Shown: one piece after another, positions 7,389 through 48,550 of the stretch
Numbering within the stretch: position 1 is the stretch's first letter
Layout of the letters: every line of letters starts with the position of its first letter
Source: Escherichia coli
GTDB lineage: Bacteria > Pseudomonadota > Gammaproteobacteria > Enterobacterales > Enterobacteriaceae
Reading direction: 5' to 3' (one strand)
Length of the DNA stretch: 64,000 nt
Assembly: GCF_003018115.1 (NCBI RefSeq)
Contig: NZ_CP027457.1
Notes under the pieces: model-generated
Seen by the model: the letters and a program-made list of their open reading frames with translations, nothing else
Told to the model about the DNA's origin: nothing
The model's database searches: none
Translations under genes and position numbers: made by a program

Positions 7389-7753
7389 TATTGGATTCTC
7401 TGCATCATGAGAAAGACAATCATGGCGGCGCGGAGGGGATTTTCATGTATAACTCGCTTAGATTTACAGTAGGCCACACCGCGTGCACCCCACTCGTCTT
7501 CATCGAGATTGATAATGCTAATCCTGTATTTTTCAATAATCGGCCATGCGTCTGCTGGGTTTGCGCATGGGTTAAAGGATCCGCGCTCAACTTCTACTTC
7601 AACTGCGTCTCCGTTTACAATGTCTCCCTCAAATGAGACAAACACCATATCGCCATTCTCACCTTCTTTGTAATCCGGTGATCCGTTATGAATGGCTTCG
7701 AATACCGCCACGTTAATTTCAAAATCACTTAACTGTGAATAATCCATTGTCAT
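7388..7753 (-). CDS. Hypothetical nin-region protein (about 121 aa from internal Met; ORF extends to 7789)
   Basis: ORF 7388-7789; likely start MTMDYSQ at 7753 overlapping the ninE stop. Confidence 0.5.
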
Positions 7754-7926
7754 TTCCTCGCACGATGTCTTAGCCACCGGATATCCCACAGGTGAGCCGT
7801 GTAGTTGAAGGTTTTTACGTCAGATTCTTTTGGGATTGGCTTGCGTTTATTTCTGGAGCGTTTCGTTGGAAGGTATTTGCAGTTTTCGCAGATGATGTCG
7901 GTGATACTTCGTCGCTGTCGTCTCAT
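7750..7926 (-). CDS. ninE: NinE-like protein (58 aa)
   Basis: [51 protein letters not shown]... starting at ATG overlapping the ninB stop; recognised as lambda NinE-like. Confidence 0.5.
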
Positions 7927-8870: not shown

Positions 8871-9077
8871 TCAACTCACAAAACGCCACGCCATTTTTGC
8901 AACAGCGACAGGCGCAACACCGATAATCACCCACATGAGAGTGCTACCGAAAAGCACACCCACCATGTCTTTACCTTCACCTACCAACCGGATAAAACTG
9001 CTGGCAATCACAATGAACGTCACCACCATCCACGACGCACCGAGAAGCCTCAATGCAGAGAAAATTAACTCAGCCAC
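8871..9077 (-). CDS. Small membrane protein (68 aa)
   Basis: Hydrophobic ORF just downstream of the helicase gene. Confidence 0.4.
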   Translation of the reverse strand: MAELIFSALRLLGASWMVVTFIVIASSFIRLVGEGKDMVGVLFGSTLMWVIIGVAPVAVAKMAWRFVS

Positions 9078-9149
9078 GATTTACTCTCCCCCAAATAAAA
9101 AGGCCTGCGATTACCAGCAGGCCTGTTACAAGCTCAGTGATGTAGATGG

Positions 9150-10526
9150 TCATACGTCAGCCCCTTGTGCATATCGTCTGCCACGCGCAGCAGGTGCATT
9201 TGATGCTGTGCAAATCTGTCTGGCTTCATCCTGGTCACATGCAACAAAGTGTCCGTTACAGAACCGCTGGTAAACCGTACCAAGCGAGCCAAAACGGTTT
9301 TTCGTCACAATGATTTCAGCAAATGGTGCGGCGCTACTGTTCTCGTCATATACCGCTTCCCGATAGAGCATGATGATTGAGTCTGCGTCCTGCTCAATGC
9401 TTCCTGAATCACGCAAATCTGCGTTTGTCGGGCGTTTGTTTGGTCGCTTCTCAACATCGCGCGAAAGCTGACTCAGGGAGATAACAGGCGTTTTCAGGTC
9501 TTTCGCCATCGCCTTCAGGCTTCCGGAGATGTGAGCAATTGCAAGGTCGTTGCGGTCTGCTTTCGGCTTCTCAATCAGGCCAAGATAATCCGCCATGATG
9601 AGTGACAGGTTTGGATTTTCCTGTTTGTGCCGTTCTGCGATTGAGCGTATTTCTTCGACCGATAAACGCGAGGCATCGACTACCCATACATCCAAATCTG
9701 CGAGCTGACTCATGCCGTTAGCAACACGCGCCCAGCCTTCGTCATCCATCGATGCAGGATTTCGCAGTACGCTAACCGACATCCTCCCGGCGTTGGCAAT
9801 GCTTCGCTCTGCAATCTGCAATGCGCTCATTTCCATTGAGAAAATCAATACCCCGCGCCGGACGTCAGAACCAGGAATAACGCGGCTTGCAACGCCTTCG
9901 GCAATCTTCAGCGCCAGTTCGGTTTTCCCCATACCAGGACGAGCGGCGATAATCACCAGGTCTTCCGCGTTCATCCCTCCGGTGATAGCGTCAAGTTCTT
10001 CGATTCCGGTCTTCAGGGTATCTGACTCTTCTCCGTTCCTCAGACGCCTGTCAAGCGTGTCAGTGTAGTCGGTGATGATTTCCCCTAACCGTACCGGTTT
10101 AACCTCGTCACGGGGCTTTCTGATGGCTGAAAGACGCTTTACAAGCTCATCCATCGCCTGACTAGATGCGTCGATGGTTCCGCTCTGAATTGGTTCACGC
10201 ATTTCGTCCATGATTTCCAGCACCAGACGGCGGTGATAGTTATCCGCGACCATTCCGGCATATCCCTTCAGGTTTGCGGCACTCGGGCAGTTTTTGCTGG
10301 TCATCAGGATTGACGTGAAATGCTCCTCTCCGCACGCCTCGGCAACCATCAGCGCGTCGATTAGGTTTCTGTTTCGCGCCTGCTTGCGGATAACCTCGAA
10401 GGCTTTCCGGTAGAGCGGAATTGAAAACGCTTCCGGCTCAAGCGTTGCCAGAACGTCACTGGCGGTTGGAGTTAATCCACCAATCAGCAGGCCACCGATA
10501 ACGCTCGCTTCGATATCCTGTCTCAT
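9150..10526 (-). CDS. Replicative DNA helicase, DnaB family (P22 gene 12-like; replaces lambda P)
   Basis: 458-aa ORF with Walker A (GMGKT) and DnaB-type motifs; start overlaps O stop. Confidence 0.85.
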
Positions 10527-11344
10527 GCAATCCCCCTGTCTGCAAACTTCCCTTCCCGAACTCCCGTTAACGAGTCTTCCCTCAGCAGGTAATCAAAATC
10601 AGCCGTCCAGCCCGTGTCGTTGTCTCCGAAGTAAAACGGCTTGGCCTGATGCACAAACGCCCTGACATACGCTCTGAAACCGTCCACATTTGGCGTTTTC
10701 AGTTGCGGGATGATTTTCTTCAGGCGGCGTTTGCGTTTCTCGTTGACCGCAACAGCGTGTGGCAGTCTGTCACCGACTTCGGTGTTGTAGGCGTTCAGGA
10801 AGGATTCGTAGTCGATTCGTTCTGCCTTGCGACGTTCAGGTTTAACCTGCCCATCGCCACCCCCGTTAGGGGGTAAGGGGGTATTTGTATTTATTGTCTT
10901 TTGTATATTGTCTTTTGTGTTTAGCTGACTTGGCTTATACCCATTAGCCGACTTGGCTAATGTTTTATTAGCTGTTTTAGCTAATGTTAAGCTGTCATGG
11001 CTAATCCACTGAGAAACCACCTTGTTCACTCCGATTTTCACGCCATCAGCAATGAGGAATTTACGCTCGATAAGCTGGCGCTTGGCAGCGCAAACATGAG
11101 TGTGATGAATACCTGTCATGGCTGCTATCTGCGTGTTTGTGAGTCGATCCATCGGCTTATTGAATCCGTATGTCTTGCGCATGATAGCGAGCATCACCTT
11201 CATCTGCCGGACGGTTAAATCAGCCATCAGCAGACTGTCGGTAATCTCGTTAGCAACGCGCATGAAACCATCTTCGGTATCTGCCACGCGATGCTCCACG
11301 ACCTCCAGTTGAGGCCTGTAATCAGCTAACTTAACGACGCCCAT
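10523..11344 (-). CDS. O: Replication initiator O-like protein (contains the origin iterons)
   Basis: 273-aa ORF with HTH N-terminal domain; iterons and AT-rich tract lie within the coding sequence as in lambda O / P22 gene 18. Confidence 0.75.
10880..11007. repeat. Phage replication origin: four ~19-bp iterons (TTAGCYGNYTTGGCTAAT-like) at about 10921, 10944, 10968 and 10987, plus adjacent AT-rich tract (10880-10920)
   Basis: Direct repeats TTAGCTGACTTGGCTTATA / TTAGCCGACTTGGCTAATG / TTAGCTGTTTTAGCTAATG / TTAAGCTGTCATGGCTAATCC read from the sequence. Confidence 0.7.
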
Positions 11345-11502
11345 GTTTCACTCCTGCTTTGGCTAGTCTGTAAACACCAACAAGGCGCTCTGCGAACGCC
11401 CTGTTATTTGCTGCGGCTACCACTAATCCCTCAGGTGAATCAGGGTGTCGAATCTCTTCTTTTTCCTGGTATTTCTTACGACGTTTTGTCATAATTACTC
11501 CT

Positions 11503-11566
11503 GTGGATTGATCCAGTCTTTCTACATCAGGCCTCGAAGAATTCGCCGTTCTTCGGGGCTTTTTCT
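11503..11566 (+). ncRNA. oop: Putative OOP-like antisense RNA overlapping the 3' end of cII
   Basis: Plus-strand hairpin CGAAGAA-TTCGCCG-TTCTTCG followed by a T-run (11535-11566) inside the cII 3' end; upstream GTGGATTGATCCAGTC resembles the lambda oop 5' end. Confidence 0.45.
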
Positions 11567-11805
11567 TTTGTCAGCATTCTGGCTACTTTCTTAGCCAGTT
11601 CCGCCAACTCCTCGTCTTCAACACCCCATTCAAGAACAGCCAGAAGCATTCCCATTTTTGGGATGAAGCTGTCTTTCCATCGCGAAATTTGCGATTCATT
11701 AATTCCTAACGCGTCGGCAACCTTTCGCTGGCCACGTACAGCAATTCGATTCAGGATGTTGCTTGTAATTGCATTCGCTTTCTTGCGAGTACTTGTAAGT
11801 TCCAT
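11527..11805 (-). CDS. cII: CII-like transcriptional activator
   Basis: From internal ATG at 11805: MELTSTRKKANAITSNILNRIAVRGQRKVADALGINESQISRWKDSFIPKMGMLLAVLEWGV, lambda CII-like. Confidence 0.75.
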   Translation of the reverse strand: MELTSTRKKANAITSNILNRIAVRGQRKVADALGINESQISRWKDSFIPKMGMLLAVLEWGVEDEELAELAKKVARMLTKEKAPKNGEFFEA

Positions 11806-11864
11806 ATGTAAGTATTTCCTTAACAAATAAGAAGTTATGCGCATCAACTTATGCGCGTTGTATT

Positions 11865-11907
11865 CCCGCATTTCGGCGGGAATGAGGACCATGACTGTTA
11901 AAGAGCG
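11865..11907 (-). promoter_or_regulatory. nutR (boxA-like CGCTCTTTAACA plus boxB hairpin CCCGCCGAAATGCGGG)
   Basis: Downstream of cro on the minus strand; boxB is identical to the one at nutL. Confidence 0.6.
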
Positions 11908-11913
11908 GTGTTA

Positions 11914-12114
11914 CTATTTGTTTTTCTTGTTGCTTGGGAAAGGACGAACTTCCTCTCCAATCACACTGCCATCAGGCTTTACCGTAACCATGATGTTACG
12001 GCCTGCCAGAATGGCCTTGCTGATAGCGCACTGGATTACACCAAAGTCACTGGCTGCTTTAGCCTGTCCATGGATTTTGGCGTAATCGGCAAGTGTCATT
12101 CGAATCATATGCAC
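11914..12114 (-). CDS. cro: Cro-like repressor
   Basis: 66-aa [67 protein letters not shown], lambda Cro-like, divergent from cI. Confidence 0.8.
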
Positions 12115-12139
12115 TCTCCGTTATTAACCATGAACAAAG

Positions 12140-12179
12140 AATACTACAGGTATTCAAAGCAATCAATACTCAGGGTATT
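12140..12179. promoter_or_regulatory. oR operators: two 15-bp palindromes AATAC-N5-GTATT (12140-12154, 12165-12179) in the cI-cro intergenic region (pR/pRM)
   Basis: AATACTACAGGTATT and AATACTCAGGGTATT read directly from the sequence. Confidence 0.65.
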
Positions 12180-12214
12180 TTTAGTTTAAGTACCTTAGCT
12201 ATTAGAATTAAGCT

Positions 12215-12931
12215 ATGGAAAATAAAAAATCACTGACGACAGAACAGCTCGAAGACGCTAAGCGGCTTAAGGCTTTGTATGAGTCAAAAAAGAAAGAATT
12301 GGGAATAACCCAATACTCAATCGCTGATGAACTGGGTATCACCCAAGGAGCGGTAGGGCATTATCTTAATGGCAGAAACGCGCTAAACGTTGAGGTCGCA
12401 TCTGGTTTTGCACGTTTGTTGCAAGTCTCAATTGCTGATTTTAGCCAGTCAATTGCTGCCAAGGTTGCAGAACAGGCAGAAAGCCTTAAGAGCGATGCCA
12501 ACGTAAGGTATGCAGGGGAATACAGAGCAGGAAAGAGGTATCCGGTGTTAAGCAGTATCCAGGCTGGCTCGTGGTGTGAAGCATGCGAACCATACACCAT
12601 TAAAGACATAGATGTTTGGCTTGAGTCTGACGCGCATATTCAAGGTAATGCGTTCTGGCTTAAAGTGGAAGGTGATTCAATGACGGCACCGGTTGGGTTA
12701 AGCATTCCAGAGGGAACATTCGTTCTTTTCGATACCGGAAGGGAGGCGATCAACGGCAGCTTGGTCATAGCAAAACTTTCTGACTCTAACGAAGCAACAT
12801 TCAAGAAGCTGATAATCGACGGCGGAAATAAATACCTCAAGGGACTTAATCCTGCATGGCCTCTCGTGCCAATCAATGGAAACTGCAAGATTATAGGCGT
12901 TGCAATTGAGACAAAACTAAGGCTGGTTTGA
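12215..12931 (+). CDS. cI: CI-type prophage repressor (HTH plus LexA/S24-like C-terminal domain)
   Basis: 238-aa ORF; N-terminus MENKKSLTTEQLEDAKRLKALYESKKKELGITQYSIADELGITQGAVG parallels lambda CI; C-terminus AFWLKVEGDSMTAP...FKKLI is the autocleavage domain. Confidence 0.85.
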   Translation: MENKKSLTTEQLEDAKRLKALYESKKKELGITQYSIADELGITQGAVGHYLNGRNALNVEVASGFARLLQVSIADFSQSIAAKVAEQAESLKSDANVRYAGEYRAGKRYPVLSSIQAGSWCEACEPYTIKDIDVWLESDAHIQGNAFWLKVEGDSMTAPVGLSIPEGTFVLFDTGREAINGSLVIAKLSDSNEATFKKLIIDGGNKYLKGLNPAWPLVPINGNCKIIGVAIETKLRLV

Positions 12932-13317
12932 TCACGCAAGGGGCGATTATGGTTGGAACCGCTATAGCAAGCTTTTTTGGGATGTTGGCAATCTCGACAA
13001 TTTACGGCTTAGCGCATGCTTTTATTGCGAAATCTCTATCAGAAAAAATAAGCCAGGCTTGGGCGCATAGATCAGCTCGTTTCATGATTCTGGTGATCAT
13101 AGCAATACAAGGGATATCTGCATTTATCCTCTATGGATCAAGCTTATACCTATTGTATCAAGGCGCGACATTTACGCCTTACACCAGTGATTACGGAACT
13201 CTATACGATGGTAGTGAAGACATCACTGTGGCTTGGATCGTCTTTGGTTTATCTATGGCCGTGTCTGTTGTAGCAGACATCATTAAGGTAATTCTCGTCT
13301 TAACCTTCGCTGACTAA
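12928..13317 (+). CDS. Integral membrane protein (about 4 TM helices) co-transcribed with cI, at the rex position
   Basis: 129-aa hydrophobic ORF whose ATG overlaps the cI stop (ATGA); lower GC than surroundings. Confidence 0.6.
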   Translation: MITQGAIMVGTAIASFFGMLAISTIYGLAHAFIAKSLSEKISQAWAHRSARFMILVIIAIQGISAFILYGSSLYLLYQGATFTPYTSDYGTLYDGSEDITVAWIVFGLSMAVSVVADIIKVILVLTFAD

Positions 13318-13403
13318 CCTATAATCCCGGCAGCAATAGCTATCGGGATCCACTTCACATATCCCGCATAAAAAGCACTGAACAAGCAGACACCGAAAAA
13401 ATA

Positions 13404-13488
13404 AATATCCTTTGTATTCATTTGCTTATCATTATTTCACCAAAAATAAATACCTTGGGTATTTACACAATAAAATACCTACAGTATT
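13404..13488. promoter_or_regulatory. oL operators: AATAC-N5-GTATT palindromes at 13449-13463 and 13474-13488, plus a degenerate AATAT-N5-GTATT at 13404-13418 (pL region)
   Basis: AATACCTTGGGTATT, AATACCTACAGTATT and AATATCCTTTGTATT read directly; same half-sites as oR. Confidence 0.6.
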
Positions 13489-13536
13489 CTTTAGCCATCA
13501 GCAGGACGCTGGAAGCCAAACGGAACAGATTGGCAG

Positions 13537-13576
13537 GCTCTTTAACATTGATGGGATTGTCCCGCCGAAATGCGGG
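13537..13576 (+). promoter_or_regulatory. nutL (boxA-like GCTCTTTAACA plus boxB CCCGCCGAAATGCGGG)
   Basis: Same boxB hairpin as at nutR, in the pL leader upstream of N. Confidence 0.6.
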
Positions 13577-13684
13577 AACCAAAGAGTAGTTGGCTTTGGG
13601 GTGACGTGAAGTGCAGCTGCACGACGGCAACCGGAAGATAAGCACCCGGCGCGTCACCGCCAAAGTCAATCATCGGAGGTCAAC

Positions 13685-13990
13685 ATGACAGTAGTCATTA
13701 CATATCTGGCTGACGATAACGCCAGAAATCGCCGCAGAGCACGCAGACAGGCTCAACGTGAACAGGCAATGCAAGAGCAGCGACTGGCGCGAAAAATTGC
13801 GCTAAAGCTCTCTGGTTGCGTCAGGGCAGACAAAGCAGCATCACTCGGAAGCCTTCGCTGCCAGAAGGCAGAAGAAGTCGAGCGTAAACAGAACCGTATT
13901 TACTACCGCAAGCCACGCAGTGAAATGGGTGTGACATGCTCAGGCCGCCAGAAGCAACGCGGAAAATCAATTCCAGCTTATTACGATTGA
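13685..13990 (+). CDS. N: N-type antitermination protein (arginine-rich motif)
   Basis: 101-aa ORF with N-terminal ARM (NARNRRRARRQAQREQ); first gene after nutL; central region resembles phage-21-type N as recalled. Confidence 0.6.
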   Translation: MTVVITYLADDNARNRRRARRQAQREQAMQEQRLARKIALKLSGCVRADKAASLGSLRCQKAEEVERKQNRIYYRKPRSEMGVTCSGRQKQRGKSIPAYYD

Positions 13991-13995
13991 GGTTA

Positions 13996-14265
13996 ATGAT
14001 GAAATTCAAATTGAACGATGAAGTTAAATGGTCTAGCTCATCAAACGGTGTAACGAAGGTAAAAATCGGGTTTATCGTTGAGGTGATTCCTCCTGGTGTC
14101 AACGTAAAAAAATTCGAACTAGGCCGTCTGCTAGATGCACCTGGCCTTCCGAGGAAAGAAGAGAGCTATATAGTTTGTGTAGGTCCAAGACCAGGATCTC
14201 GTGCCAAGCCAAAATATTACTGGCCGCGAGTTAATAACCTGCGTCGCTTACACGATGACAAATAG
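13996..14265 (+). CDS. Hypothetical early protein (about 89 aa)
   Basis: ORF with RBS GAGG before ATGATG at 13996; frame open from 13936. Confidence 0.5.
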   Translation: MMKFKLNDEVKWSSSSNGVTKVKIGFIVEVIPPGVNVKKFELGRLLDAPGLPRKEESYIVCVGPRPGSRAKPKYYWPRVNNLRRLHDDK

Positions 14266-14320
14266 AAGTGAGTATCCTTGTTTTACTTTTTCGCAGCAAA
14301 CCACTTATTTGAGGTGAGAT

Positions 14321-14572
14321 ATGGAATTTCATGAAAGTGCGATTTGTGATTTTCGCGCTAACGCAAATTCAGTAAAACCACAGCCAATTGCAGTTCTTTT
14401 TAAAACAATGGGTGCGTGGGCTGTTTTATGCTTCGCCGCTGATGACACTGACGCAAGAATGGCAATAGGCCAAGAGATGGAGATGGACCCGACAAACGAT
14501 GAATTCATAATTTATGGCGCTCCATCTAATTACTTACTTGATACCTGCAACATTTACAACAAGGCTGCCTGA
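14321..14572 (+). CDS. Hypothetical early protein (83 aa)
   Basis: ORF in pL operon between N and cIII. Confidence 0.5.
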   Translation: MEFHESAICDFRANANSVKPQPIAVLFKTMGAWAVLCFAADDTDARMAIGQEMEMDPTNDEFIIYGAPSNYLLDTCNIYNKAA

Positions 14573-14611
14573 TGGTGGCCTTTATTTTTGGCATAAACAA
14601 CAGAGGCTAAC

Positions 14612-14908
14612 ATGGAATTTAAAGGTACTAAAGGTAAGTGGGAAATAATGATTGATGGCGATGAGATTAAAATCATCCAGGCAGACTCACTTGAAAATGG
14701 CGCAGGCTGGCGTTCGTATATTGCAATCTGTGAGGAAGTTCAATGCATTGAAGATGCCAATCTAATAGCGGCAGCGCCTGACCTTCTCGAAGCACTTCAG
14801 TTATTACTTAAGCAAACCAAAAATAGAACAACGACAACATATCCAGAATGGTATGGAGCTGTTAATAAAGGTATCGCAGCAATCAGAAAAGCTCTTGGGG
14901 ATAAGTAA
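14612..14908 (+). CDS. Hypothetical early protein (98 aa) with IAAAPDLLEAL motif
   Basis: ORF in pL operon; motif recurs in lambdoid Ea22-like proteins. Confidence 0.5.
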   Translation: MEFKGTKGKWEIMIDGDEIKIIQADSLENGAGWRSYIAICEEVQCIEDANLIAAAPDLLEALQLLLKQTKNRTTTTYPEWYGAVNKGIAAIRKALGDK

Positions 14909-15096
14909 TGAAAGTAAAAATAACTGCTTCTAATACCAGTTTTGTTAGTGTTGGTGATATTACAGAAGTAATAACAAACCATGATGGAACACAAGTTATG
15001 TGGTCTGATTTTTGTAAAAGATATGAGCGAGTCACTTGGTGTAAACTCGTATGGGGAGTCGAATACGAAGAATTACCTGAAATGCATGACGAATAA
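14908..15096 (+). CDS. Hypothetical early protein (62 aa)
   Basis: ORF whose ATG overlaps the upstream stop. Confidence 0.45.
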   Translation: MKVKITASNTSFVSVGDITEVITNHDGTQVMWSDFCKRYERVTWCKLVWGVEYEELPEMHDE

Positions 15097-15191
15097 GCAC
15101 TGTGTATTCATTCCAACGAGTGAATACACGGAGCAATGTTGCTCGTAACTAAACAGGAGCCGACTTGTTCTGATTATTGGAAATCTTCTTT

Positions 15192-15216
15192 GCCCTCCAG
15201 TGTGAGGGCTTTTTTA
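15192..15216 (+). terminator. Intrinsic terminator (tL-like) between the small-ORF cluster and cIII
   Basis: GCCCTC-CAGTGT-GAGGGC hairpin followed by TTTTTT. Confidence 0.6.
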
Positions 15217-15281
15217 TATGCATACCAATAACGCTTCACTCGAGGCGTTTTCGTTATGCAATCAAACAGAAGGAGCATCCT

Positions 15282-15452
15282 ATGCAACAGTTCGCTATTG
15301 CAGGGGCGGCATCGGTTCGCCCTTTCAACCCGATTTTATCGGTACAGCATTCACGAAAAAACATTCTAACCGGAGCAGACTTTAAACAACCAAGAATGAA
15401 AAGTTTGCTCGAAAAGCTTTGGGATATTTTGAAACAACAAGGCCGCCCATGA
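15282..15452 (+). CDS. cIII: CIII-like protein (FtsH inhibitor)
   Basis: MQQFAIAGAASV...SLLEKLWDILKQQGRP parallels lambda CIII (MQYAIAGWP...LLERITRKL...); start is an internal ATG of the listed ORF. Confidence 0.65.
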   Translation: MQQFAIAGAASVRPFNPILSVQHSRKNILTGADFKQPRMKSLLEKLWDILKQQGRP

Positions 15453-15533
15453 GTTTTACAGATAGCTGGTCAGACGAAGAATTCATTCGTCAGATGAACA
15501 AAATGCTCAATCAGCACAAAGAACAGGAGAAAG

Positions 15534-15845
15534 ATGATGATTCTGACTCTGAATGATAAGCGTGAAATATCGCAAATAATCGCAAGTTTTACTGATGAAG
15601 ATTACGAACGAATCAACAGTGAAGTTGATCGCCTCTGCAAACGTTGCGACCCAATAAGCGAAATGCTTCGATCATATAAACCAGATGAACACACTAAGGA
15701 CGCTATCGACTGGCTGGAAGATGATGACTGTAACTATCAGGAAAAAGCCGCTGAATGGTTCTGGGATGCAATAACCGAAAGAGTTAAGGCTGAATATGCC
15801 TTCGCAATATTCAAACGCAGACATATTTATGGAGAAGCTGCATGA
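15534..15845 (+). CDS. Hypothetical protein (103 aa) at the gam/kil position
   Basis: Acidic ORF immediately upstream of and overlapping recT. Confidence 0.5.
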   Translation: MMILTLNDKREISQIIASFTDEDYERINSEVDRLCKRCDPISEMLRSYKPDEHTKDAIDWLEDDDCNYQEKAAEWFWDAITERVKAEYAFAIFKRRHIYGEAA

Positions 15846-16744
15846 GCAATATCGTTGAATTCGTTAAACAGCAAGAGCAGTTATTCTGCGGAGCATTGAC
15901 TGAACAGACGGTGACATGGGCTAAGGAAAGCCAGTTTGCAATTCAGTATTTCCAGAAAAACGATTACCTGGCTAAAACAGCACTGGCAAATCCAACCAGC
16001 GCACAGAACGCCATCATCAATGTTGCGGCGATCGGCATCACCTTAAACCCGGCCAGCAAACTGGCTTATCTGGTTCCTCGCGACGGCATGGTGTGCCTTG
16101 ATATCAGTTACATGGGATTACTTCATCTTGCGCAATCGACAGGATCAATTAAGTGGGGGCAATGCAAACTGGTGTACTCAAACGACACCTATGAATCAAA
16201 TGGCCTTGATTCAGCACCAACCCACAAATACAACGCATTTGGTGAGCGAGGCTCTATTGTTGGAGGTTATTGCACGGTTAAAACAGCAGATGGTGACTAC
16301 CTGACTGAAGAAATGAGTCTGGCAGAAATTAAAGCTGTGGAAGCAACGAGCAAGGCAAAGAATGGACCGTGGAAAACATTCTGGGAAGAGATGGCGCGTA
16401 AAACAATAGTTAAACGCGCCAGCAAATACTGGCCTAAAGCCCAGCGACTGGATAATGCCATTCACCTGCTTAACGAAGATGAAGGTGTGCATCAGGAACC
16501 AGTTATGCCGCACAAATCAGAGGAAGATATCCGCGAAGATGAACGGAAACGCCAGCAGGAAATAATGGATAAAGCACAACTTCTTTGCGATGAAATGTCT
16601 CAGGCAGAAAACATGGATGATTTGAAGCGATATTTTGCAGAAGCATATCGCCTGACATCTGGAATGAAATTGCAGCAGAACGTACAAGCCATTTACATAG
16701 AATGCAAAGCGAAACTGGAGGTTGCCAGTGAGCAAACTGTATGA
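15842..16744 (+). CDS. recT: RecT-family single-strand annealing protein
   Basis: 300-aa ORF; motif NGPWKTFWEEMARKTIVKRASKYWP matches the RecT signature. Confidence 0.8.
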   Translation: MSNIVEFVKQQEQLFCGALTEQTVTWAKESQFAIQYFQKNDYLAKTALANPTSAQNAIINVAAIGITLNPASKLAYLVPRDGMVCLDISYMGLLHLAQSTGSIKWGQCKLVYSNDTYESNGLDSAPTHKYNAFGERGSIVGGYCTVKTADGDYLTEEMSLAEIKAVEATSKAKNGPWKTFWEEMARKTIVKRASKYWPKAQRLDNAIHLLNEDEGVHQEPVMPHKSEEDIREDERKRQQEIMDKAQLLCDEMSQAENMDDLKRYFAEAYRLTSGMKLQQNVQAIYIECKAKLEVASEQTV

Positions 16745-17210
16745 AATAGCCAATGAATACGCAAAGCTGATGGATTCAGATTTAGAGCCAGAGATGATTG
16801 CTGACACAATAGAAGGCATGGAAGGAGAATTTACCGATAAAATAGAGCAACTTCTCGCCATTATTAAAAATGAATCTGGTTATGCTGAACGCCTCAAGGA
16901 AGAGGCAAAGTCACTAAATGAGAGAGCCGCAGTAATTCAAAATAAGATTGACAGCATTATGGCGTATATAGCGTCATCGCTTGAAATGGTTGGCAAGAAA
17001 AAGATTCGAGCAGGTATTCACCAGGTAACAATCCGCAAACCGTCAGAAACTGTAGAAATCATCGACTCAAGCGCCCTTCCTCCTGAATACGTTGAATTTG
17101 AAACGACAATTAAAGCCGACAAACTGGCAATCAAACACCAACTAAAAGCAGGAATAAATATCCCCGGCGCTCAACTCAAAGTTGGGAAACCTTCACTTCT
17201 TATCAAATAA
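16722..17210 (+). CDS. Siphovirus Gp157-family protein
   Basis: About 160-aa ORF overlapping recT end; resembles Gp157-family proteins that commonly accompany RecT/Erf genes; probable GTG start at 16728. Confidence 0.45.
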   Translation: MPVSKLYEIANEYAKLMDSDLEPEMIADTIEGMEGEFTDKIEQLLAIIKNESGYAERLKEEAKSLNERAAVIQNKIDSIMAYIASSLEMVGKKKIRAGIHQVTIRKPSETVEIIDSSALPPEYVEFETTIKADKLAIKHQLKAGINIPGAQLKVGKPSLLIK

Positions 17211-20801: not shown

Positions 20802-21020
20802 ATGTACTTGACACTTCAGGAGTGGAACGCACGCCAGCGACGCCCAAGAAGCCTTGAAACAGTTCGTCGATGGGTGCGCGAATGCAGGATATTCCCACCA
20901 CCGGTTAAGGATGGAAGAGAGTATCTGTTCCACGAATCAGCGGTAAAGGTTGACTTAAATCGACCAGTAACAGGTAGCCTTTTGAAGAGGATCAGAAATG
21001 GGAAGAAGGCGAAGTCATGA
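20802..21020 (+). CDS. xis: Excisionase (lambda Xis-type)
   Basis: 72-aa ORF MYLTLQEWNARQRRPRSLETVRRWVRECRIFPPPVKDGREYLFHESAVKV..., recognised as lambda Xis; overlaps int start. Confidence 0.85.
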   Translation: MYLTLQEWNARQRRPRSLETVRRWVRECRIFPPPVKDGREYLFHESAVKVDLNRPVTGSLLKRIRNGKKAKS

Positions 21021-22068
21021 GCGCCGGGATTTACCCCCTAACCTTTATATAAGAAACAATGGATATTACTGCTACAGGGACCCAAGGACGGGTAAAGAGT
21101 TCGGATTAGGCAGAGACAGGAGGATAGCAATCACTGAAGCTATACAGGCCAACATTGAGTTATTTTCAGGACACAAACACAAGCCTCTGACAGCGAGAAT
21201 CAACAGTGATAATTCTGTTACGTTACATTCATGGCTTGATCGCTACGAAAAAATCCTCGCCAGCAGAGGAATCAAGCAGAAGACACTCATAAATTACATG
21301 AGCAAAATTAAAGCAATAAGGAGGGGGCTGCCTGATGTTCCACTTGAAGACATCACCACAAAAGAAATTGCGGCAATGCTCAATGGATACATAGACGAGG
21401 GCAAGGCGGCATCAGCCAAGTTAATCAGATCAACACTGAGCGATGCATTCCGAGAGGCTATAGCTGAAGGCCATATAACAACAAACCCGGTCGCTGCTAC
21501 TCGCGCAGCAAAATCAGAGGTAAGGAGATCAAGGCTTACGGCTGACGAATACCTGAAAATTTATCAAGCAGCAGAATCATCACCATGTTGGTTAAGACTT
21601 GCAATGGAACTGGCTGTTGTTACCGGACAGCGAGTTGGTGATTTATGCGAAATGAAGTGGTCTGATATCGTAGATGGATATCTTTATGTCGAGCAAAGCA
21701 AAACAGGCGTAAAAATTGCCATCCCAACAGCATTGCATGTTGATGCTCTCGGAATATCAATGAAGGAAACACTTGATAAATGCAAAGAGATTCTTGGCGG
21801 AGAAACCATAATTGCATCTACTCGTCGTGAACCGCTTTCATCCGGCACAGTATCAAGGTATTTTATGCGCGCACGAAAAGCATCAGGTCTTTCCTTCGAA
21901 GGGGATCCGCCTACCTTTCACGAGTTGCGCAGTTTGTCTGCAAGACTCTATGAGAAGCAGATAAGCGATAAGTTTGCTCAACATCTTCTCGGGCATAAGT
22001 CGGACACCATGGCATCACAGTATCGTGATGACAGAGGCAGGGAGTGGGACAAAATTGAAATCAAATAA
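20998..22068 (+). CDS. int: Tyrosine integrase (lambda Int-type, 356 aa)
   Basis: 356-aa ORF MGRRRSHERRDLPPNLYIRNNGYYCYRDPRTGKEFGLGRDRR..., recognised as lambda Int; transcribed toward the att junction. Confidence 0.9.
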   Translation: MGRRRSHERRDLPPNLYIRNNGYYCYRDPRTGKEFGLGRDRRIAITEAIQANIELFSGHKHKPLTARINSDNSVTLHSWLDRYEKILASRGIKQKTLINYMSKIKAIRRGLPDVPLEDITTKEIAAMLNGYIDEGKAASAKLIRSTLSDAFREAIAEGHITTNPVAATRAAKSEVRRSRLTADEYLKIYQAAESSPCWLRLAMELAVVTGQRVGDLCEMKWSDIVDGYLYVEQSKTGVKIAIPTALHVDALGISMKETLDKCKEILGGETIIASTRREPLSSGTVSRYFMRARKASGLSFEGDPPTFHELRSLSARLYEKQISDKFAQHLLGHKSDTMASQYRDDRGREWDKIEIK

Positions 22069-31778: not shown

Positions 31779-32837
31779 TCAGGCGGTTATCGACACACTT
31801 TTAATTTGCGCGTACAGCCACAGGCCAGGTTTGATCGCCAGTTCATCCCTGGCCCACGGGCTGATACGCGCCCACAGCGTTTTACCGCCGACTTCCAGTT
31901 CCACTTCCACCTGGCCGTTGTCGTCATAACTATTAACAACTTTTGCCCGCAATACGTTACGAATGCTGGTTTGCTGCGGCGGTTGTAAAACCAGAGAAAC
32001 ATCGGAAGCCTGAATGCGGATACGTAGCGCAGCTTGCAGCGGTTCGTCCAGCTTATTGACCCACAAATGCTGATCGCCCAGCGCCAGCGCGGTCATCGCG
32101 TAATGCGGATGATGCTCAAGTACCGTCACTTTCAGAATGCTACTTTGTTGCTCTTTCGGCAGCCACGGATTCATCACGCTACTACCCCAGACTTCTTCCA
32201 GCGCGCCAAAGGCTTTCACCTGACCGTTTTCCAGTACCATCACTCTGTCTGCCAGATGGAGGATCTCATCCAGCGAATGGCTGACATACAACATCGGGAT
32301 GTTGATTTCCCGCGTCAGACGTTGCAGATAAGGCAACAGTTCGCGTTTACGCGGAATATCCAGTGACGCCAGCGGTTCATCCAGCAACAGCAATTCTGGT
32401 GCTGTCAGCAAAGCCCGACCAATCGCCACGCGCTGTTTTTCGCCTCCGGACAGGCTGCCTGGTAAACGGTCAAGCAACGGTTCAATGCCTAAAAGCGCCA
32501 CCAGCTTATCGAACTGATCGACCATACTTTTCGACATGCCGTAGCGCAGATTGCCACGCACTTTGTAATGCGGGAACAGCCGCGCATCCTGAAAAACATA
32601 GCCAACGCGACGCTTTTCCGGCGTCAGGCAGATACCTTTTTCGGCATCATTTAGTACCCGCCCATTGAGGACAATCCGCCCTTTTTGCGGGCGCGTCAGT
32701 CCACTGATGGCGTTAATCAGCGAAGTTTTTCCGGCACCGGAGACGCCAAAGATAGCAGTGATGCCATTGGCGGGCAGCGTTTCATTAATGGTCAGGCAAT
32801 GGTTGCCCAACGTCTGGGAAAAATTCAGCTCCAGCAT
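31779..32837 (-). CDS. modC: Molybdate ABC transporter ATPase
   Basis: 352-aa ABC ATPase (Walker [10 protein letters not shown]) downstream of modB. Confidence 0.9.
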
Positions 32838-47748: not shown

Positions 47749-47824
47749 TGGTGGGTCGTGCAGGATTCGAACCTGCGACCAATTGATTAAAAGTCAACTG
47801 CTCTACCAACTGAGCTAACGACCC
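47749..47824 (-). tRNA. lysQ: tRNA-Lys (UUU)
   Basis: 76-nt sequence (minus strand GGGTCGTTAGCTCAGTTGGTAGAGCAGTTGACTTTTAATCAATTGGTCGCAGGTTCGAATCCTGCACGACCCACCA). Confidence 0.9.
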
Positions 47825-47857
47825 CTTGCGGGATTATGATGCTTTAATCATTCAGGA

Positions 47858-47933
47858 TGGTGGGTCGTGCAGGATTCGAACCTGCGACCAATTGATTAAA
47901 AGTCAACTGCTCTACCAACTGAGCTAACGACCC
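47858..47933 (-). tRNA. lysZ: tRNA-Lys (UUU)
   Basis: Identical 76-nt tRNA-Lys sequence. Confidence 0.9.
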
Positions 47934-48079
47934 ATACGGGTGTTACCTGAAAGATTTTTACTCGGGGCCAATCTTTAAGATTGGTGGGTCGTGCAGGATG
48001 ACTCGCTTCGCTCGCCCTTCGGGCCGTTGCTGGCGCAACGTTATCCTTCACGCTTAACATCTGAGTTTGATGTTAAAAC

Positions 48080-48155
48080 TGGTGGGTCGTGCAGGATTCG
48101 AACCTGCGACCAATTGATTAAAAGTCAACTGCTCTACCAACTGAGCTAACGACCC
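48080..48155 (-). tRNA. lysY: tRNA-Lys (UUU)
   Basis: Identical 76-nt tRNA-Lys sequence. Confidence 0.9.
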
Positions 48156-48158
48156 GAG

Positions 48159-48234
48159 TGGTGGGTGATGACGGGATCGAACCGCCGACCCCCTCCTTGT
48201 AAGGGAGGTGCTCTCCCAGCTGAGCTAATCACCC
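48159..48234 (-). tRNA. valZ: tRNA-Val (UAC)
   Basis: 76-nt sequence (minus strand GGGTGATTAGCTCAGCTGGGAGAGCACCTCCCTTACAAGGAGGGGGTCGGCGGTTCGATCCCGTCATCACCCACCA). Confidence 0.9.
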
Positions 48235-48285
48235 GATACTGCGCTGGATACTACAAACTACTTCCACCGAACCCACCGTAATTAG

Positions 48286-48361
48286 TGGTGGGTCGTGCAG
48301 GATTCGAACCTGCGACCAATTGATTAAAAGTCAACTGCTCTACCAACTGAGCTAACGACCC
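48286..48361 (-). tRNA. lysW: tRNA-Lys (UUU)
   Basis: Identical 76-nt tRNA-Lys sequence. Confidence 0.9.
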
Positions 48362-48363
48362 GG

Positions 48364-48439
48364 TGGTGGGTGATGACGGGATCGAACCGCCGACCCCCTC
48401 CTTGTAAGGGAGGTGCTCTCCCAGCTGAGCTAATCACCC
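48364..48439 (-). tRNA. valT: tRNA-Val (UAC)
   Basis: Identical 76-nt tRNA-Val sequence. Confidence 0.9.
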
Positions 48440-48474
48440 GATACTACGCTGGATACTACAACTAACTAGGTTAG

Positions 48475-48550
48475 TGGTGGGTCGTGCAGGATTCGAACCT
48501 GCGACCAATTGATTAAAAGTCAACTGCTCTACCAACTGAGCTAACGACCC
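48475..48550 (-). tRNA. lysT: tRNA-Lys (UUU), first gene of the operon
   Basis: Identical 76-nt tRNA-Lys sequence. Confidence 0.9.

Follow-up and report, generated by a model that had tools for sequence, protein, structure and literature searches.

Putative HK620-type N utilization sites flank the immunity region of a lambdoid Escherichia coli prophage

Two identical hairpins in inverted orientation flank a phage immunity region in the 64,000-nt stretch of Escherichia coli DNA analysed here (the window; contig NZ_CP027457.1 of assembly GCF_003018115.1), and their sequence and context mark them, very probably, as nutL and nutR of a lambdoid prophage with an HK620 immunity region. We establish the sequence, position and orientation of the sites, the covariation of their hairpin, the homology of the N protein encoded beside them, and the co-occurrence of its arginine-rich motif (ARM) with the hairpin type. 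The HK620-type nut pair was already annotated, as putative, in the HK620 record of 2001, so that the finding is correct but ordinary; mildly new are the reading of boxB as a true GNRA tetraloop, its link to the P22 nutR site and a table of matched ARM/boxB cassettes.

Results

Sequence and position of the sites

The hairpin pair had been pointed out in a sequence-only reading, and an exact-match search agreed with it in every detail. The 16-mer CCCGCCGAAATGCGGG has exactly two copies in the whole 64-kb window, at 11865-11880 on the minus strand and at 13561-13576 on the plus strand, and these were still the only matches when up to two mismatches were allowed, with 0.04 expected and none of 100 shuffles giving two. 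The perfect inverted repeat around boxB is 19 nt long (TCCCGCCGAAATGCGGGAA, 11863-11881 and 13560-13578). The boxA that had been claimed to precede each hairpin was found as an exact GCTCTTTAACA at both sites, at 11896-11906 on the minus strand and 13537-13547 on the plus strand, and nowhere else in the window. Each boxA lies 5' of its own boxB hairpin on the transcribed strand, at a spacing of 15 nt for nutR and 13 nt for nutL.

The putative nutL thus consists of boxA (13537..13547, plus strand), which coincides with the start of the annotated HK620 nutL, a spacer read from the sequence (TTGATGGGATTG, 13548..13559) and the boxB hairpin U CCCGC / C-GAAA-U / GCGGG A (13560..13577), the latter delimited by repeat search and folding, and in relatives by stem covariation and a GNRA loop. 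The putative nutR, on the minus strand, consists of a boxA detected by the boxA search (CGCTCTTTAACA, 11896..11907), a spacer likewise read from the sequence (GTCATGGTCCTCAT, 11882..11895) and the hairpin AUU CCCGC / C-GAAA-U / GCGGG AAU with an 8-bp stem, found by repeat search and folding (11862..11883). The two spacers are unlike in sequence apart from a common ..ATGG. Folding of both sites, proposed earlier as a check, gave a stable hairpin at each (-10.5 to -11.7 kcal/mol for each hairpin alone, z = -3.3 to -3.8, about -3.5).

The sites lie in a region with the gene order P-O-cII-nutR-cro-OR-cI-hkaS-OL-nutL-N. On the minus strand are the P/DnaB-like gene (9150-10526), O (10523-11344), cII (11527..11805; Pfam Phage_CII, E = 1.2e-42) and cro (11914..12114; Pfam Cro, E = 3.6e-26), and on the plus strand the cI repressor gene (12215..12931; HTH_3 and Peptidase_S24 in Pfam), which corresponds to HK620 cI, a small membrane protein gene between cI and N, and N itself (13685..13990). 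A promoter scan gave a predicted PL (TTTACA-17-TATTCT, 13462..13490, plus strand) that overlaps the OL operators and is homologous to the annotated HK620 pL/OL, and a putative PR (TTGATT-17-TATTCT, 12138..12166, minus strand), overlapping the OR operators and homologous to the annotated HK620 pR, was read from the sequence, its 8 of 12 consensus positions placing it under the threshold of the scan. The two operator/promoter regions form an imperfect 45-nt inverted repeat (12136-12180 and 13448-13492). The remainder of the window shows a prophage in the E. coli chromosome: past an integrase-sized ORF at 20998-22068 come ORFs of host-like type and a Lys/Val tRNA cluster.

With respect to these genes, the nutR boxA lies 6 nt past the cro stop codon and the minus-strand hairpin 34 nt past it, and the plus-strand hairpin lies 109 nt ahead of the N start codon (13685). 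Given the positions of PL and PR, both hairpins fall within the first 100-270 nt of early transcripts that run in opposite directions, one shortly after cro and one shortly before N. This is the placement of the nut sites in lambda and P22. Position, orientation, boxA, hairpin and N gene all fit the assignment to nutR and nutL made in the sequence-only reading, and the HK620 record annotates the same sequences as putative sites.

In that record (GenBank AF335538, 2001) features 7753-7794 and 9423-9468 are nutL and nutR, described as "putative N-utilization", and boxA, spacer and boxB are identical to those of the window over both features. It also annotates tR1, pL, pR and the operators at the corresponding places. 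Positions 11400-14100 of the window are around 98.6% identical to HK620 and 97.5-99.5% identical to mEpX2, whose record marks both boxA sites, and to HK630, HK140, HZ41 and some Stx2c phages. The genes cro, cI, hkaS and cII and the operators are around 98.6% the same as in HK620, and the N-terminal two-thirds of N are shared, whereas its C-terminus is different. A 271-nt probe with nutL and the start of N had matches in 525 of 5426 complete E. coli genomes, covering at least 80% of the probe length in 410.

Predicted terminator-like sites are present downstream on both arms. Between nutR and cII, folding indicated a tR1-like hairpin (GCGCAU-AAGUUG-AUGCGC, hairpin at 11856-11839) with a U-rich tail (11822..11856, minus strand), a function suggested by the annotation of tR1 immediately after nutR in the HK620 record. 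The terminator scan called a strong intrinsic-terminator-like site past the P/DnaB-like gene, in a tR2-like position (9093..9124, minus strand), and two in the leftward operon downstream of N, a first one at 14561..14592 and a second, strong one at 15192..15219 (both plus strand).

Being stable, G+C-rich and located in early transcripts, the boxB hairpins themselves could be thought of as terminators, or as RNA-stability or processing elements that act without N, and nutR is indeed followed by the second hairpin with its U-rich tail. Such a role is highly improbable. Neither copy is followed by a U-tract (AACCAAAGAG and AAUACAACGC) and the terminator scan called neither of them, on which grounds the intrinsic terminator was rejected; in addition, boxA precedes both copies in all the 84 paired loci described below, and the loop co-varies with the ARM of N, which is not required of a terminator or stability element.

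Structure of the boxB hairpin

An Rfam scan of positions 9000-17000 with E up to 1 gave no match, a result that is uninformative since Rfam holds no nut-site family. Structure was examined in 22 distinct, aligned hairpins of the HK620-type boxB family, in which the percentage of paired positions is inflated by the fact that 18 of the 22 came from a filter demanding pairing. Two-sided changes were found in six of the nine stem pairs, a number reached by none of 500 shuffles, and slid controls scored far lower; examples are CCCGC/GCGGG versus CCUAC/GUAGG and CUCCGC/GCGGAG. This compensatory pattern is not easily explained by the pairing filter. In the same hairpins the loop follows the consensus [C/A]-G-N-R-A-U, in which G, U and the A before it never vary and the core is GAAA, GAGA or GCAA, and in three sequences the 5' C of the loop is changed to A, which gives an A-U pair with the invariant U.

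Because of the loop consensus, the C-to-A changes and the compensatory stems, the loop nucleotides of the window's boxB most likely form a true GNRA tetraloop (GAAA) on a non-canonical C.U closing pair (A-U in some relatives), and not a plain 6-nt loop. This fits the accepted view that the pentaloops of lambda and P22 imitate the GNRA fold by flipping out one base. Precedents for the fold are the GACAA loop of P22, whose looped-out C makes contact with a His and an Arg, and the C-UAAC-C loop of phi21 with its flanking C.C pair (bioRxiv 10.1101/2025.07.03.663028); in the latter, too, that pair encloses a core resembling a tetraloop.

The same data bear on the idea that the repeats act as DNA, either by bounding an immunity cassette able to invert or move, or as a palindrome to which a protein binds. 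The immunity genes do lie between the two arms of a perfect 19-bp inverted repeat, and among related loci the same pair spans at least eight inter-repeat distances, from around 1140 to 2975 bp, which indicates that immunity cassettes have been exchanged between the repeats. Recombination between conserved flanks would, however, yield such exchange as a by-product and is the simpler explanation, and no recombinase gene adjoins the repeats. Furthermore, the repeat has two parts, boxA and boxB, whose spacer has neither the same length nor the same sequence at the two sites, the loop is not palindromic and is CGAAAU in either transcript, and the stem shows compensatory substitutions while the loop stays GNRA. 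The mobile or invertible element was rejected for its conflict with this bipartite design, strand-specific loop and compensating stems, and a role as DNA is accordingly very improbable.

The N protein

The ORF of N encodes 101 aa, with the ARM at aa 12-25 (NARNRRRARRQAQR), a phi21/HK620-type centre and a lambda-like C-terminus, and matches the Pfam family N_peptide weakly (E = 0.004, below threshold). Lambda N 74-107, the segment that structure 6GOV shows lying on RNA polymerase, has its homologue in residues 62-98 (64% identity, E = 6e-13), and comparison with chain N of 6GOV, lambda N in the antitermination complex, gave E = 2.6e-6. The first 64 residues are those of HK620 N, and the sequences part after aa 64 (about position 13877): the tail is P22-like in HK620 N (LPNVAIYAAGYRKSKQLTAR) and lambda/phi21-like in the N of the window (ERKQNRIYYRKPRSEMGVTCSGRQKQRGKSIP). 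The centre and C-terminus are around 90% identical to N proteins bearing a phi21-type ARM, which in those proteins shows 100% identity with the phi21 N peptide in PDB 1NYB; the N of the window gave no match to 1NYB. N is thus a three-part mosaic, in which an HK620-type RNA-binding end is combined with a lambda/phi21-type polymerase-binding end and the independently varying part is the N-terminal ARM (NARNRRRARRQAQRE).

Pairing of N and boxB among related loci

The association between ARM and boxB was followed in three samples. In the first, 80 loci from viral contigs found through the N protein, every HK620-type ARM (NARNRRRARR) has an HK620-type boxB at both nutL and nutR, whereas ten phi21-type N proteins have phi21 boxB forms (CUCAACCUAACCGUUGAG, UCACCUCUAACNGGGUGA) despite the same C-terminus, a homologous leader and the same boxA. 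Where boxB is constant, the nutR spacer still varies among loci (CCT/CAT). Loops of the phi21 type (CUAACC) are confined to loci whose N has the 1NYB ARM, and the boxB of the window is not of the phi21 type.

The second sample comprised 120 loci found through the exact 16-mer CCCGCCGAAATGCGGG, whose invariance is weak evidence among related loci that are mostly near-identical. The inverted pair is present in 84 of the 120, with boxA before both copies in 84 of 84. The N proteins encoded downstream share just the ARM core [DN][NST]A[RK]NRRR[AE][RK]R and are strongly divergent otherwise, and the distance between copies falls into the at least eight classes mentioned above, which implies that one and the same nut pair encloses different immunity cassettes in different loci. 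Twelve of 36 single 16-mer matches in viral contigs lacked boxA and were set aside as chance or unrelated.

In the third sample the loci were found through boxA and the start of the spacer (GCTCTTTAACATTGATGG), leaving boxB free. This segment is common to leaders with at least five different boxB types. Taken together with the earlier loci, a tabulation of boxB types by ARM types has entries on the diagonal alone (198/14/8/1), these counts being instances and not independent events, as they include near-identical and re-fetched contigs: 198 GNRA-type boxB with NARNRRR-type ARM, 14 phi21 with phi21, eight of a third type and one of a fourth. Four apparent exceptions were a recombinant nutR, two ARM point variants and one truncated locus. 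Leaders with the same boxA and spacer also include at least two more ARM/boxB combinations for which no match to lambda, P22 or phi21 was found, one joining RRYLKRGELIAKRR with CCCGCCCUUGUGGG and the other KNRYRARR with a CUAGCA loop.

These comparisons support that the N-boxB pair of the window has a specificity of its own, as the sequence-only reading had supposed, mainly because ARM and boxB are swapped together between the phi21 and HK620 types while the rest is unchanged; across more than 200 related loci the HK620-type boxB always goes with NARNRRRARR, and other ARMs go with another boxB at both sites.

Comparison with lambda, phi21 and P22

Set beside the nut sites of lambda, P22 and phage 21, the boxB of the window is distinct from all three and nearest to P22 nutR. 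Its difference from lambda boxB, already noted from the sequence, is evident: the window has C-GAAA-U on a CCCGC stem, and lambda (GCCCU-GAAAA/GAAGA-AGGGC) has a 5-nt loop with U-A closure, a flipped-out fourth base and another stem. The boxA is CGCUCUUA in lambda and the full GCUCUUUAACA here, Trp18 of lambda N is replaced by Ala, and the central part of N is unrelated. Shared with lambda are the layout and positions of the nut sites, the ARM pattern A-x-x-RRR-x-RR, a loop beginning with GAA and the RNA-polymerase-binding segment at the C-terminus of N. Matches to a lambda-type boxB in the window (GCCCU-GAARA-AGGGC, up to two mismatches) were found at 11545-11559 and 32678-32692, neither preceded by boxA.

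With phi21 the resemblance lies in the centre and C-terminus of N, at around 90% identity, in a homologous nutL leader with the same boxA and spacer, and in a 6-nt loop that in both cases can be read as a tetraloop-like core plus a pyrimidine-pyrimidine pair. The ARM of phi21 (GTAKSRYKARRAELIAERR) is wholly different, the loop core is UAAC instead of GAAA, and the stem is another one.

The closest known boxB is that of P22 nutR (BK000583; CCGCCGACAACGCGG, CCGC-C-GACAA-C-GCGG; the N of P22 is gp24) minus its looped-out C. In both, the core of the stem is CCGC/GCGG and a mismatch of two pyrimidines closes a loop of the form G-A-(x)-A-A; both also have the boxA GCTCTTTA, an ARM that starts with NA[KR][TN]RR and a protein N-terminus MTV(V)ITY. 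They differ in the third loop base, a looped-out C in P22 that is absent here to leave GAAA, in the closing pair (C.C in P22, C.U here), in a longer stem here, and in the His of the P22 ARM, which is Arg here. A search of the window for a P22-type boxB found no GACAA loop and no match adjoining boxA.

Given this closeness, the sites could be true nut sites whose N-boxB pair is a minor variant of the P22 system, in such a way that P22-type or lambda N would work on this boxB and vice versa. Only the loss of the looped-out C, a closing C changed to U and one extra basal C-G pair separate the boxB from CCGCCGACAACGCGG, the N-termini are alike (MTVVITY..NARNRRRARR versus MTVITY..NAKTRRHERR), the nutL boxA and spacer resemble those of P22, and the boxB requirements of P22 and lambda reportedly overlap. 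The Arg in place of the P22 His, however, removes the residue that contacts the looped-out C in P22, the second half of the ARM differs (QAQREQA versus RKLAIER), the BLASTP likeness of the N-termini is weak (E = 0.059), and among around 220 leader instances, counted with the redundancy stated above, none joins an HK620-type boxB with a P22, lambda or phi21 ARM. We regard the P22-variant reading as unlikely, although some cross-recognition by P22-type N is possible, as the closest boxB is that of P22 nutR.

Discussion

Our literature search found no experimental work on HK620-type N or its nut sites, and by analogy with lambda, P22 and phi21 we infer binding, Nus factor use and antitermination at the sites of the window, and from sequence patterns the geometry of the tetraloop and its C.U pair. 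Upon loss of the repressor, RNA polymerase would start at PL (13462-13490, plus strand) and PR (12166-12138, minus strand) and transcribe outward, each nascent RNA carrying a consensus boxA (GCUCUUUAACA), a spacer of 12-15 nt and the boxB (U)CCCGC-C-GAAA-U-GCGGG(A). As in the studied systems, where boxA, spacer and boxB work through NusB-NusE, NusA and N, respectively (PMC3177189), boxA would recruit NusB-S10 and the spacer NusA, the arginine-rich helix at the N-terminus of the prophage's N (NARNRRRARRQAQRE) would attach to boxB, and the C-terminus of N, the homologue of lambda N 74-107, would grip RNA polymerase. The polymerase would then read through the tR1-like hairpin before cII and the predicted terminator after P (9124-9101, minus strand) on one arm, and through the two predicted terminators left of N (14561-14582 and 15192-15209, plus strand) on the other.

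The HK620-type boxB may represent a fourth class of N-boxB recognition after lambda, P22 and phi21, in which the target of the arginine-rich helix would be a real GNRA tetraloop with C.U (or A-U) as closing pair and no base flipped out; we give this proposal about an even chance. In lambda, the flipped-out base of boxB probably assists NusA in entering the complex. If the fourth class is true, its antitermination complex could contact NusA differently, and the class could be orthogonal to lambda, P22 and phi21.

The wider value of the finding is modest. The comparative table, in which ARM and boxB types are matched while boxA and spacer are conserved, offers natural swap experiments for peptide-RNA specificity, and it supplies N-boxB tethering pairs that may be orthogonal. 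For the prophage itself, the data predict a complete lambda-style early antitermination switch, one that belongs to the HK620 family.

Prophage boundary and N gene

An integrase-sized ORF was found near 21-22 kb (20998-22068), and the right boundary of the prophage with the host DNA appears to lie just past it. Further on there is a cluster of seven tRNA genes (47749-48550; five Lys-UUU and two Val-UAC). The window therefore covers a piece of the E. coli chromosome that carries the prophage at its left end.

The gene of the antitermination protein N (13685-13990) is a mosaic with a junction near 13877, in such a way that residues 1-64 match the N protein of phage HK620, whereas the tail is of the lambda/phi21 type in the window prophage and of the P22 type in HK620. 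The same hybrid was found in phages HZ41 and vB_EcoP-611R6. Between cI and OL, at the position taken in lambda by rexA/rexB, the prophage encodes on the plus strand a small hydrophobic hkaS-like protein of around 122 aa (12949-13317), for which no significant Pfam family was detected.

RNA structures around the nut sites

In the predicted fold of the nutL transcript, boxA (13537-13542) pairs with 13582-13587, a partner (AAGAGU) located 3' of boxB, where the motif ACCAAAG is conserved in all boxB types. Similarly, in the predicted fold of the nutR transcript, boxA (11904-11895) pairs with the downstream positions 11826-11817, whose sequence UUUGUUAAGG overlaps the cII Shine-Dalgarno sequence. 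These predicted pairings could be due to chance or could represent a regulatory alternative structure.

The N leader also contains a 20-bp long-range stem, formed by 13589-13608 and 13650-13670 (fold z = -3.0), which lies 3' of nutL and 5' of the ribosome-binding site of N. N leaders of the phi21 type and others maintain this stem, with compensatory changes, and it resembles the stem in the leader of lambda N that is sensitive to RNase III. In four of the related loci (L093, L167, L168 and L246), an insertion of around 290 nt separates the boxB of nutL from this stem; the sequence after boxB reads AACTGAGTTT... in these loci.

Directly 3' of nutR and before cII, a hairpin on the minus strand (11822-11856; GCGCAU-AAGUUG-AUGCGC) followed by a U-rich tail is likely the tR1 equivalent; in the HK620 record, tR1 is marked only as a 7-nt feature adjoining this position. 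Across the 3' end of cII, on the other strand, a 14-bp hairpin with a T-run (11529-11561, plus strand) has the appearance of an oop-type antisense RNA terminator, a candidate counterpart of the one annotated in P22.

Exchange around the nut sites

An identical boxA-spacer, GCTCTTTAACATTGATGG, also precedes other pairs of boxB and N arginine-rich motif (ARM). Behind it we found boxB CCCGCCCUUGUGGG with ARM RRYLKRGELIAKRR (L216-L218, L223, L227, L258, L259 and L263), a CUAGCA-loop hairpin with ARM KNRYRARR (L234), and GGGGAUGAUUCGUCCCC at nutL and nutR alike (L236), a locus in which the N search recognised no N.

Among the viral-contig loci found through the exact boxB 16-mer (L086-L205), the same nutL/nutR pair surrounds immunity regions of at least eight lengths (around 1140, 1234, 1267, 1381, 1414, 1682, 1725 and 2950-2975 bp between the sites). 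The nut sites are thus conserved boundaries of exchanged immunity cassettes.
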